A DNA stretch of 64,000 nucleotides from Thermofilaceae archaeon (GTDB lineage: Archaea; Thermoproteota; Thermoprotei; Thermofilales; Thermofilaceae): contig JAWCCZ010000001.1 of the NCBI GenBank assembly GCA_038861545.1, positions 480,001-544,000 on the forward strand, given 5' to 3'. A program made the translations under genes and the position numbers. The notes beneath the pieces were generated by a model that was given only the letters and a program-made list of their open reading frames with translations, was not told where the DNA came from and searched no databases. Shown here one piece after another: positions 34,340 through 36,507 of this stretch (position 1 is its first letter; the number at the start of each line of letters is the position of its first letter).

Positions 34340-34703
34340 CCTCAGGTTCTAGAACACCAAGCTTAAGCAGGGCTTCCACGGCTTTTCTCACCTCCGGCGT
34401 TAGTTCGCCTTCACCTCTTAACGCCGCGATAACCTGTTCTCTCATACGCTCTAGCATGGAAGGCCAGAGCTCCGGTCTCGCTAACCTAAGCCTTCCAGGT
34501 TTGTTCAAAGGTTCAGTAACCTCGATTGGCCGAATATCTCGTATATCTGCATTCATATCCGCGAGAATCAAAGTGTAGCCTCCGCATCCAGTGCACCGTA
34601 CAACTGTAGTTCCCTGCTTAACCTCAACCACGAGCGAGTTGTCACAGTGCGAGCACGGGATCTTAGCTATCCTGCCTTTTCCTCCAACTTCAACCACTTC
34701 CAT
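34332..34703 (-). CDS. Zn-ribbon (2x CxxC) protein with C-terminal wHTH-like end
   Basis: CSHC...CTGCGG, then ILADMNADIR; C-terminus VEALLKLGVLE. Confidence 0.65.
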   Translation of the reverse strand: MEVVEVGGKGRIAKIPCSHCDNSLVVEVKQGTTVVRCTGCGGYTLILADMNADIRDIRPIEVTEPLNKPGRLRLARPELWPSMLERMREQVIAALRGEGELTPEVRKAVEALLKLGVLEPEGG

Positions 34704-35028
34704 TATTCTCCCCCTCTTTTTTGAAAATTATTTTTAATTCCTCAAGCCAAAAATTAATGAAATTTTTATCATCGCGCTCAAAAGCGTTTAACAGCTCATC
34801 CGGCGGAACCCTGAACCCTCTCTCAGTCAGGATGCAAGCAACAAGTATGATAAACAACCTAGCATAGTCAAGGTCATTATCATATAAGCCAGCTAGCCGT
34901 TCCATAAACCTCCTAGGCGACTCTACAACCAGTGTATCAGGGTCACCCCACCCCTCTCTCTCAAACCCTCTTCTTACAAGCATTCCAGCCGGGTAAGCCA
35001 GGAAATCGAGAAGCTCAGTCAACCTCAT
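34690..35028 (-). CDS. Small helical protein, NitrOD5/DUF3227-like output domain
   Basis: ESPRRFMERLAGLY...ARLF pattern resembles the P..F...L..LFG family; assignment by eye only. Confidence 0.45.
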   Translation of the reverse strand: MRLTELLDFLAYPAGMLVRRGFEREGWGDPDTLVVESPRRFMERLAGLYDNDLDYARLFIILVACILTERGFRVPPDELLNAFERDDKNFINFWLEELKIIFKKEGENNGSG

Positions 35029-35029
35029 A

Positions 35030-36043
35030 TCACTTCACCTCTACCTCTTTCTGAAGTTTAACTACTTCACGTAGCAGGTACAGAAGCGGAGTAACTTTCA
35101 CGATGCCCGGTATCATTGTGAACTCTATCGCATCAATGTCCAGGTCACCTAGCGCTCTATACAATTCGGGCATTGCCGCACATGGTGGTTGGCCAGATAC
35201 CAAAGCCTTACTTAGGTCAATGTAAGCTGTGTGGAACCAAGGTAACTGAACCAATGTATTTGCAACAGCGTAAGCGTCTCTTCCTTCAACGTAAATCACC
35301 TTATACGGTGTGGAATCCAGCTTATCGTATACGCGTACCCTATTTCCCTCCCATAAATTAAGCAAATGATCTTTGAAATGTTTGCTAAGTACCCGGCGTG
35401 GAACTTTTTTCTCAAAGTATTTTTCGCTTTCTCTTTCAGCTTCTCTCATGGAAGAGAAAGGCCATTTAAACTTCATTGATAGAATTAAAAGGTCAACGTC
35501 ATCGAGTAGTATATTTTTCTCGGATAGGGAAAGCTGCGGCCCTCTCTCTTTTTCACCCTTTTGTAGATATATTTCAGGGATTTTCCCATACAGTTTTCCA
35601 TTCGTGTACATTGTTAGCTTAGATTTTGGACTCCACCATGCTCTTTTTACGGCTCTAACTACTAAGGCGTTATCCTCAAAGTTTGATAGCCAGTTTTCAA
35701 TAACTTCGTTTGCTACTGGCAATAGTCCAACGTAAAGGTAGTAACGACCTCCCATGATGCGCAGTTCCCTTGTAGACTCATAGTAAGGTAATTTTTCTAT
35801 ATACTTTTTACTGATAACTGCTATGTTTAAAAGTCCAGCTTTCTCCAGTTTTATTTCAAATCTTAAAGAAACATTTTTGGAAACATTAAATTGGGAGAGT
35901 AAACGGGAAACCGTGTATGGTGGTAAGCCGGATTTTTTCACCACTTCGGATATCGTAAGCGAATCTTCCACTGCTTGTATAACTTTCCATTCATCTTCTC
36001 TTATGTTAAGAAATGGGAAAAATTTTTCTGATATAGTCCTCAC
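35030..36043 (-). CDS. Tandem Lrp/AsnC-like HTH transcriptional regulator
   Basis: First HTH TISEVVKKSGLPPYTVSRLL...IKLEKAGL; second HTH LDDVDLLIL...VPRRVLSKHF..HL. Confidence 0.7.
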   Translation of the reverse strand: MRTISEKFFPFLNIREDEWKVIQAVEDSLTISEVVKKSGLPPYTVSRLLSQFNVSKNVSLRFEIKLEKAGLLNIAVISKKYIEKLPYYESTRELRIMGGRYYLYVGLLPVANEVIENWLSNFEDNALVVRAVKRAWWSPKSKLTMYTNGKLYGKIPEIYLQKGEKERGPQLSLSEKNILLDDVDLLILSMKFKWPFSSMREAERESEKYFEKKVPRRVLSKHFKDHLLNLWEGNRVRVYDKLDSTPYKVIYVEGRDAYAVANTLVQLPWFHTAYIDLSKALVSGQPPCAAMPELYRALGDLDIDAIEFTMIPGIVKVTPLLYLLREVVKLQKEVEVK

Positions 36044-36077
36044 CTGAATTTCTTTGTTTTGACCACTTATTTTTATC

Positions 36078-36233
36078 TTAAAGTGGGTCTATGTCAGGCG
36101 CAGGCACTCCTCCTGGCGGGGGTGGAGGCTCGGGAGCAACAATGCTCTTAGAAATTACGAACGCAGCTAGCGCAAGCACTAGCGCAAGCAGCTTCCACTT
36201 GTAAATTTTCAGTACGTATTTTATGGTTCTCAT
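36078..36233 (-). CDS. 51-aa hydrophobic, proline-rich micropeptide (not in ORF track)
   Basis: Manual translation MRTIKYVLKIYKWKLLALVLALAAFVISKSIVAPEPPPPPGGVPAPDIDPL*; basic N-region plus hydrophobic core; TTTAAGTA box 24 nt upstream; stop 34 nt before the next gene. Confidence 0.7.
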   Translation of the reverse strand: MRTIKYVLKIYKWKLLALVLALAAFVISKSIVAPEPPPPPGGVPAPDIDPL

Positions 36234-36264
36234 CAATAATTAGGTGAAAACTGTGATACTTAAA

Positions 36265-36318
36265 CTTTACGCCATTTTTGCAGTCACACATTGATATAGT
36301 TGCAAAAATGGCGTAAAG
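36265..36318. promoter_or_regulatory. Perfect 18-bp inverted repeat (18-nt spacer), candidate operator
   Basis: CTTTACGCCATTTTTGCA (36265-36282) and TGCAAAAATGGCGTAAAG (36301-36318) are exact reverse complements; the left arm abuts the minus-strand TATA box at 36257-36264. Confidence 0.8.
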
Positions 36319-36507
36319 AACTTGCAGGCAGCAGCGGACTCGTACATTTGCCTCAACTGTATGTTTACTATTTAAACTAAATAGTTGAAATTTTCAAATG
36401 AAAACTTGGGATTTATATTTCAGTTTCTAAGTGTTACATAGGCACTCTTCGAAGATATTCGATGATTGTAAAGTTGGACTTTTAAGGTAATTGGTAGCTA
36501 GTATCGA

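Follow-up and report, generated by a model that had tools for sequence, protein, structure and literature searches.

A single-copy inverted repeat at a micropeptide promoter in Thermofilaceae: two head-to-head Lrp-type boxes as the putative operator of a fused double Lrp-like regulator

What does a long perfect inverted repeat do when it stands directly against the TATA box of a gene for a micropeptide? Such a repeat lies in the window (the whole 64,000-nt stretch of the Thermofilaceae archaeon contig analyzed here), in a divergent intergenic region with the genes of a micropeptide, a 337-aa protein and a 112-aa protein on the minus strand to its left (Table 1). The sequence-only reading of this DNA described it as a perfect 18-bp inverted repeat with an 18-nt spacer and zero mismatches, whose proximal arm covers the BRE position up to the TATA box, and a pattern search and a repeat finder confirmed this description: the two arms, of 18 nt each, are exact reverse complements. 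Read on the minus strand, the proximal arm and the TATA box give GGCGTAAAG-TTTAAGTA, and the BRE sequence GTAAAG falls within the arm. The first position given in that reading, 36257, is where the TATA box begins; the arm itself starts at 36265.

Table 1. Features of the repeat and its cassette in the window, and dyads of paralogous cassettes in other genomes of the order
Feature	Position in the window	Strand	Sequence and remarks
TATA box of the micropeptide promoter	36257-36264	-	TTTAAGTA on the minus strand; TACTTAAA on the plus strand
BRE position	36265-36270	-	GTAAAG, here the outer 6 nt of the proximal arm; RNAAAR in orthologues
Promoter-proximal arm	36265-36282	.	CTTTACGCCATTTTTGCA on the plus strand; holds the 13-bp Lrp-type box CGCCATTTTTGCA, 36270-36282, centre 36276
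Spacer, 18 nt	36283-36300	.	sequence unconserved; length of the whole dyad fixed, 41-42 bp
Distal arm	36301-36318	.	TGCAAAAATGGCGTAAAG on the plus strand; holds the 13-bp box TGCAAAAATGGCG, 36301-36313, centre 36307
Micropeptide gene	36078-36236	-	likely ATG at 36233; basic N-terminus, TM helix, conserved ...PxP[DN]IDPL tail
337-aa fused double Lrp-like regulator, candidate binder	35030-36043	-	AlphaFold2 model, Foldseek
112-aa protein, third cassette gene, conserved	34690-35028	-	function unassigned
Paralogous dyad L146			AGTTTTTGTTTC-N20-GAAACAAAAACT; reached by 0/60 shuffles
Paralogous dyad L169			AGTTTTTGCTTC-N21-GAAACAAAAACT; reached by 0/60 shuffles
Paralogous dyad L148			TTTGCATATGTT-N22-AACAAATGCAAA; reached by 1/60 shuffles
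Paralogous dyad L021			TTTGACCTTGAT-N22-ATCAAAGTCAAA; reached by 3/60 shuffles

For two complementary 18-nt arms, 0.09 chance matches are expected in the window, and for a perfect 18 + 18 repeat with a loop of at most 40 nt the expectation calculated from composition (44.7% GC, 1.63-Mb genome) is about 1e-3. The genome holds 11 perfect inverted repeats with arms of at least 14 nt and loops of at most 40 nt, among which only the repeat in the window combines long arms with a long spacer. When the 18-mer was searched with up to two mismatches in the 12 contigs of the genome, no copy was found beyond the two arms. A regulon search with the core pair GCCATTTTTG-N17..26-CAAAAATGGC, allowing up to four mismatches, found no second site in the genome, and the other exact 10-mers in the genome number three, which is the chance level (about three expected).

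The repeat is conserved with the cassette that it precedes. Orthologues of the regulator (47-51% identity) are present in five genomes from two other Thermofilaceae genera, and in all five the core GCCATTTTTG-N21/22-CAAAAATGGC occurs with 0-2 mismatches 200-230 nt before the regulator, followed by the RNAAAR hexamer, the TATA box yWTAARTA, a homologous micropeptide (..YKWKLL..TM..PxP[DN]IDPL) and the regulator. With mismatches allowed, the site is found in 6/6 genomes with an orthologue. Of the 41 genomes of the order, 4 contain the exact core pair, a single time each and without exception at the orthologous cassette; the reversed control pattern matched nowhere in these 41 genomes. Scanning metagenomes with the regulator protein added 34 loci, and the element was present at every locus with enough upstream DNA. 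The resulting set of orthologous promoters comprises 27 distinct sequences from Thermofilaceae genomes and hot-spring metagenomes, with regulators 38-52% identical, and a dyad of 41-42 bp was found in every one of the 27; conservation upstream of orthologous loci, which the earlier reading had put forward as a check, is thus borne out. The alignment runs without indels from the distal box through the TATA box, except for a spacer that is longer or shorter by 1 nt in the window and in locus L009, while the spacer sequence and the outer flanks cannot be aligned. The yWTAARTA box is aligned in 27/27 promoters, with RNAAAR conserved between it and the proximal box. Since the start codon lies 27-42 nt past the start of the TATA box in nearly all loci, the promoter belongs to the peptide gene, and the mRNA of the micropeptide should be leaderless or carry a short leader.

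The overlap of arm and BRE holds in the window but is not a general trait. A palindrome over the full BRE exists only in the window genome and in L049, and a mirror copy of the BRE on the distal side (CTTTAC/GTAAAG) is found in the window only, L049 having CTTAC/GTAAG. What is conserved is a half-site core just upstream of the BRE. Beyond the orthologous set, a 31%-identical cassette from another family of the order (L144) has the same box pair with an A/T-flipped centre, and a distant cassette (L011) retains the proximal box alone. In a genome of the same genus as the window, G001, both genes that flank the cassette are cut at contig ends (G001:C20:5-661 and G001:C5:2-217), so the cassette is unassembled there and its presence or absence is uninformative; the gap possibly arose from strain heterogeneity at this locus. 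A pattern scan across all organisms returned at least 80 matches (L085 and L117 being duplicates of L010 and L007), and because most of them are from unrelated bacteria, the core pattern is informative only within Thermofilaceae. Many genomes of Segatella copri also have the exact pattern at a conserved locus (within the set L064-L143), which is unrelated to the archaeal element.

The arms have the form of archaeal Lrp/FFRP sites. Together, 54 arms give the consensus T[T/C]GCCATTTTTGC[A/T]G, and in the position weight matrix G3, C4 and C5 as well as T11, G12 and C13 are invariant or nearly so, whereas positions 7-9, the A/T centre, vary most. A passage of PMC2715240 gives the form abcdeWWWe'd'c'b'a' for the dimer site of archaeal Lrp/FFRP proteins, based on SELEX. 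The 13-mer TGCCA-TTT-TTGCA is symmetric at four of the five positions of this form, and the mismatch at the fifth makes the box polar. Compared with the SELEX optimum of Ss-LrpB quoted in the same passage, the box has 12/15 matches by our own count. Archaeal Lrp sites are 13-17 bp long and spaced by two or three helical turns (PMC2995911), and the boxes described here agree with this in length and in their A/T centre, except that one lineage (L031-33/53/60) has C/G in the centre, unlike the FFRP form. The box centres are 30 bp apart in 25/27 promoters and 31 bp apart in the two others, the window and L009; at about three helical turns, the two boxes share a DNA face. For the archaeal Lrp activators Ptr2, LysM and Ss-LrpB, the location of one dimer site, immediately upstream of the BRE, is tightly constrained, additional sites lie at a distance of two or three turns, and autoregulation is found in most Lrp proteins (PMC2995911). 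A comparable constraint is seen here: box, 6-nt BRE and TATA box follow one another without insertion or deletion in 27 sequences. The loci of one lineage (L045, L048 and L050) carry an isolated third box (TTGCCATTTTTGCAG or TTGTCATTTTTGCAG) 93-96 bp upstream of the distal box, about nine helical turns away, in the orientation of the distal arm and with no partner arm; it lies within an insertion of about 190 nt between the dyad and a divergent gene of the metallo-beta-lactamase (MBL) fold.

The sequence-only reading had labelled the 337-aa protein a tandem-HTH protein, and structure prediction agrees with this label. The AlphaFold2 model (26 homologues; pLDDT 88.3, pTM 0.86) contains two consecutive HTH + beta-alpha modules. 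Its best Foldseek match is NirDL (E 3.6e-7, probability 1.0), followed by the single Lrp folds FL11 (PH1519), Rv3291c and AhbA/B. The protein models as a single-chain pseudo-dimer of Lrp-like modules, with HTH and RAM present twice. Pfam returned weak N-terminal HTH matches below the curated cut-offs, neither Pfam nor NCBIfam gave an Lrp match, and a sequence search of the PDB found no relative. The relatives in databases are hypothetical proteins of Thermofilaceae or 'Thermoprotei' MAGs, and a literature search turned up no paper about Lrp regulators that are fused or in tandem like this one. A Tyr in the recognition helix (LS-Y-HF) goes with GCCRYYTTTG arms, an anecdotal association within a single lineage only.

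The other two genes of the cassette are also conserved. In the window the micropeptide is of 51/52 aa and ends in ...PAPDIDPL; it is kept at all orthologous loci, and analogous peptides precede many paralogous regulators. Its TM-helix coding region contains a perfect 12-nt tandem duplication (CTAGCGCAAGCA twice, 36167-36190), which encodes a 4-residue hydrophobic repeat. In G007, G015 and G009, the gene of the 112-aa protein comes immediately after the regulator orthologue. A TATA-like TTTAAGATAAAAATAAG (within 36044-36085) overlaps the stop codon of the micropeptide 25-35 nt before the GTG of the regulator; judged from its position and letters, it might be an internal promoter for basal expression of the regulator independent of the dyad.

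Within the order, the regulator family occurs in multiple copies, up to seven matches being found per genome, and many of the paralogues are preceded by their own micropeptide gene. Several of these paralogous cassettes have different 12-nt dyads with spacers of N20-22, set right against the peptide gene's TATA box, which the arms reach (examples in Table 1). Cassettes with a dyad of their own were listed at L146, L169, L148, L021, L024, L013 and L014, and the tails of the paralogous peptides are rich in Pro and Asp (PDPDPF, PDPSPDP and PDLDPL). A significant dyad is absent at some paralogues, and those in the complete genomes of the cultured genus are mostly without a micropeptide. The sole other paralogue in the window genome is at G000:C4:136116-136871 on the minus strand; about 500 nt past its 3' end lies a perfect 34-bp palindrome with 17-nt arms and no loop (G000:C4:135581-135614).

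It had also been proposed that the repeat might control the divergent gene and that this gene is lipid-kinase-like. Neither proposal was supported. The divergent gene encodes a 247-aa membrane protein on the plus strand to the right of the repeat, for which Pfam and NCBIfam gave no match, including none to a kinase. Control by the repeat is unsupported for several reasons: the gene is far away, with some 190 nt between its start and the distal arm; a TATA-like CTTTTAAGG of its own precedes its GTG by about 20-29 nt; and its orthologues lie elsewhere in the genomes of genus g9, the repeat having other neighbours in other lineages. Between the dyad and this gene, a palindrome CTATTTA-AAC-TAAATAG (36368-36384) is TATA-like on both strands. 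In g9 and on most metagenome contigs, the upstream neighbour is instead a divergent MBL-fold gene with a THxHGDH motif, whose start is 30-40 nt from the distal box (loci named: L006-L010, L040, L049 and L056); in L009, a co-directional gene ends at the palindrome. Co-regulation of the MBL-fold gene is conceivable in g9, since the distal box is about 12 nt from its TATA-like element. In L006 and L007, the reading frame of the MBL-fold gene opens with ATGGC, the reverse complement of the GCCAT of the box.

We conclude that the repeat is real, single-copy, conserved and coupled to the promoter, and that to judge from its sequence it is a pair of Lrp-type boxes three turns apart; its binder, the stoichiometry, the sign of regulation and the ligand we infer as follows. 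It is probable, in our judgement, that the regulator autoregulates the peptide-regulator operon, with one pseudo-dimeric molecule binding per box. The regulator is the candidate binder because the site is unique in the genome and strictly co-occurs with the orthologous cassette, and because a dimer of single-chain pseudo-dimers would require polar inverted boxes. The earlier suggestion that two long, widely spaced half-sites suit a dimer of the neighbouring tandem-HTH protein fits the double-Lrp model and the paralogous dyads, and the comparative evidence lends good support to the putative autoregulation at the core of that reading. The inverted repeat would then be the operator or upstream activating site of the micropeptide-regulator(-112-aa) operon. 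One fused double-Lrp chain would occupy each box, its HTH1 and HTH2 each contacting one half-box, and the RAM-like domains would join two chains, which would bend the approximately 17 bp of DNA between the boxes. The promoter-proximal chain could contact TBP/TFB and so bring about positive autoregulation, as with Ptr2, LysM and Ss-LrpB; alternatively, it could occlude the BRE and repress. We lean slightly toward activation. In the Lrp precedents, a site just upstream of the BRE is where activators bind. Repression would suit the fact that the palindrome crosses the BRE in the window and L049 and that the paralogous arms reach the TATA box. Dual behaviour that depends on occupancy is possible by analogy with Ss-LrpB, and a switch by occupancy or by a ligand, the ligand being the tail of the peptide, is possible as well.

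A more far-reaching idea is that the cassette is a peptide-signalling circuit, in which the double-Lrp protein binds the boxes either solely in the presence or solely in the absence of the micropeptide's processed tail and thereby feeds back on the gene of the pre-peptide. We regard this idea as tentative and somewhat doubtful. If it is true, each paralogous cassette in the order would be a private peptide-regulator-operator channel, and the repeat would give archaea their first cis-element of peptide quorum sensing.

Among the alternatives to autoregulation by the 337-aa protein, the one that survives best is a genuine operator bound by something else, namely the 112-aa protein, a canonical Lrp or another global factor. 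The resemblance of the box to a canonical Lrp optimum (the 12/15 matches to the Ss-LrpB SELEX site in the quoted passage of PMC2715240) would suit a canonical Lrp, the 112-aa gene always travels with the cassette, and NirDL, the best fold match of the 337-aa protein, is an enzyme and no proven transcription factor. However, a global factor is disfavoured because many sites would be expected, and the paired site was found once in the genome and only where the orthologous cassette occurs. Paralogous cassettes, moreover, change the dyad sequence together with the regulator while keeping the geometry, and a pseudo-dimer accounts for polar inverted boxes more readily than a symmetric Lrp dimer does. 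We consider another binder unlikely.

Still less probable, in our view, is that the palindrome acts as a nucleic-acid hairpin or cruciform (an RNA stem-loop, terminator or processing site, or an element of DNA topology or replication) with no sequence-specific regulator. The repeat folds strongly on either strand (-32 to -34 kcal/mol, z -4 to -5), which is unsurprising because any perfect palindrome must do so. Symmetry is maintained as well: changes have occurred on both sides at 8/19 pairs, above all shuffles on some measures, with symmetric substitutions GCCATATTTG/CAAATATGGC in L049, GCCATTTATG/CATAAATGGC in L061 and L063, and GCCATTTTTT/AAAAAATGGC in L059. L049 is a near-perfect 41-bp palindrome, with 40/41 positions self-complementary and an unpaired centre base that is unable to match, and L050 has 17-bp arms. 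This symmetry does not decide the matter because the operator and hairpin models both predict it. The spacer, furthermore, is reverse-complemented between otherwise identical flanks when L038 is set against L048 (the reverse complements are 100% identical) or L031 against L032 and L053 (90%), which implies hairpin or template-switch intermediates in vivo. The groups with inversions of the 21-nt spacer between identical or nearly identical flanks are L038 versus L046/L048 and L031/L060 versus L032/L033/L053, and both orientations persist in nature. Spacers inverted between otherwise identical flanks indicate that intramolecular template switching or arm-to-arm recombination happens here, and the small inversions probably come from template switching at the quasi-palindrome. 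The symmetric arm substitutions could likewise stem from template switching or gene conversion rather than selection, and they are weaker evidence of selection because arm-to-arm recombination alone could homogenize the arms.

Several observations speak against such a hairpin and favour recognition by a protein. The site is upstream of the TATA box between divergent genes and is therefore without a known promoter that would transcribe it. A terminator/promoter scan of bacterial type found no T-tract terminator, and Rfam gave no true match, only sub-threshold noise from miRNA models (mir-153, 30 bits against a gathering score of 54); an intrinsic terminator or structured RNA finds no support on these grounds, and the RNA hairpin that the sequence-only reading had named as its own possible refutation is disfavoured. 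It is the sequence of the arms, not their pairing alone, that is conserved amid diverged surroundings and across regulators of 38-52% identity. In the widespread L036-type variant, seen on several contigs that come from different samples, AAA replaces TTT at the centre of the proximal box and so produces three consecutive stem mismatches, all from A/T to A/T; for an Lrp box this is a W-to-W change. The third box in L045, L048 and L050 has no partner arm with which to pair, and the register to the BRE and TATA box is the only constant, the upstream neighbours being variable.

The weakest alternative, the end of a mobile element or MITE or an invertible DNA switch, would account for the long perfect inverted repeats and for a spacer that occurs in both orientations across related populations, but we consider it most improbable, as the element has one copy in the genome and one per genome throughout the order (so that the genome-wide and order-wide searches, with only the two arms at up to two mismatches, reject a MITE or repeated-element end), no recombinase or transposase is among the neighbours, and the flipped segment measures only 15-21 bp and is promoterless because the TATA box sits outside the repeat, unlike that of an inverton.

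What is new here is a head-to-head pair of polar boxes that serves a fused double-Lrp regulator and a micropeptide gene. It provides a short and precise DNA target for an order-wide, uncharacterized family of fused double-Lrp proteins that travel with genes for exported micropeptides, and it opens the question of peptide-responsive transcription in archaea to testing. The paralogous cassettes, which have different dyads at the same geometry, form a natural set for deriving a specificity code. The head-to-head polar boxes also suggest that operator architecture follows the fusion of the Lrp dimer into one chain.

The closest known systems share some traits with the element and differ in others. 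In Bacillota, RRNPP operators such as the PlcR box upstream of papR are palindromes before the gene of an exported peptide that adjoins the gene of a cytoplasmic regulator. The layout here is similar, with a palindromic, putative operator before the gene of a small exported peptide beside a regulator gene, and it would give a feedback loop. The likeness to RRNPP systems, a palindromic box before a peptide gene, is an analogy of circuit layout only: the receptor fold here is Lrp-like and not TPR, for which reason an RRNPP-type peptide-responsive operator was rejected, the host is an archaeon with a TBP/TFB promoter, and peptide export, re-import and peptide-dependent binding are putative in this case. 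With the siroheme decarboxylase NirDL/AhbA-AhbB (PDB 4CH7, 4CZC and 4CZD), the 337-aa protein shares two Lrp/AsnC-like modules in one chain. However, NirDL is an enzyme with an identity of about 9% to the 337-aa protein, whose locus in the window has no haem-pathway context and whose gene is preceded by a conserved putative operator.

Among the closest known systems are also those of archaeal Lrp proteins. As with Ptr2 and LysM, the proximal site is immediately upstream of the BRE and the second is two to three turns upstream (PMC2995911), although the palindrome here also covers the BRE and is equally compatible with repression; activation and contact with TBP are putative here. With the boxes of Ss-LrpB from Sulfolobus solfataricus and other archaeal FFRPs, the element shares a box of 13-15 bp with GC-containing ends and an A/T centre (TTGCAA[AAT/ATT]TTGCAA for Ss-LrpB in the quoted passage of PMC2715240, TTGCCATTTTTGCAG in the window), the placing of several boxes phased by whole turns in the control region of the regulator itself, and a family that autoregulates (PMC2715240, PMC2995911). 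Ss-LrpB has three boxes, whereas here there are two, polar and set head to head in a single long palindrome; the protein presumed to bind them is a double Lrp in one chain that lacks a significant Lrp match in Pfam, and the first gene of the operon encodes a micropeptide.
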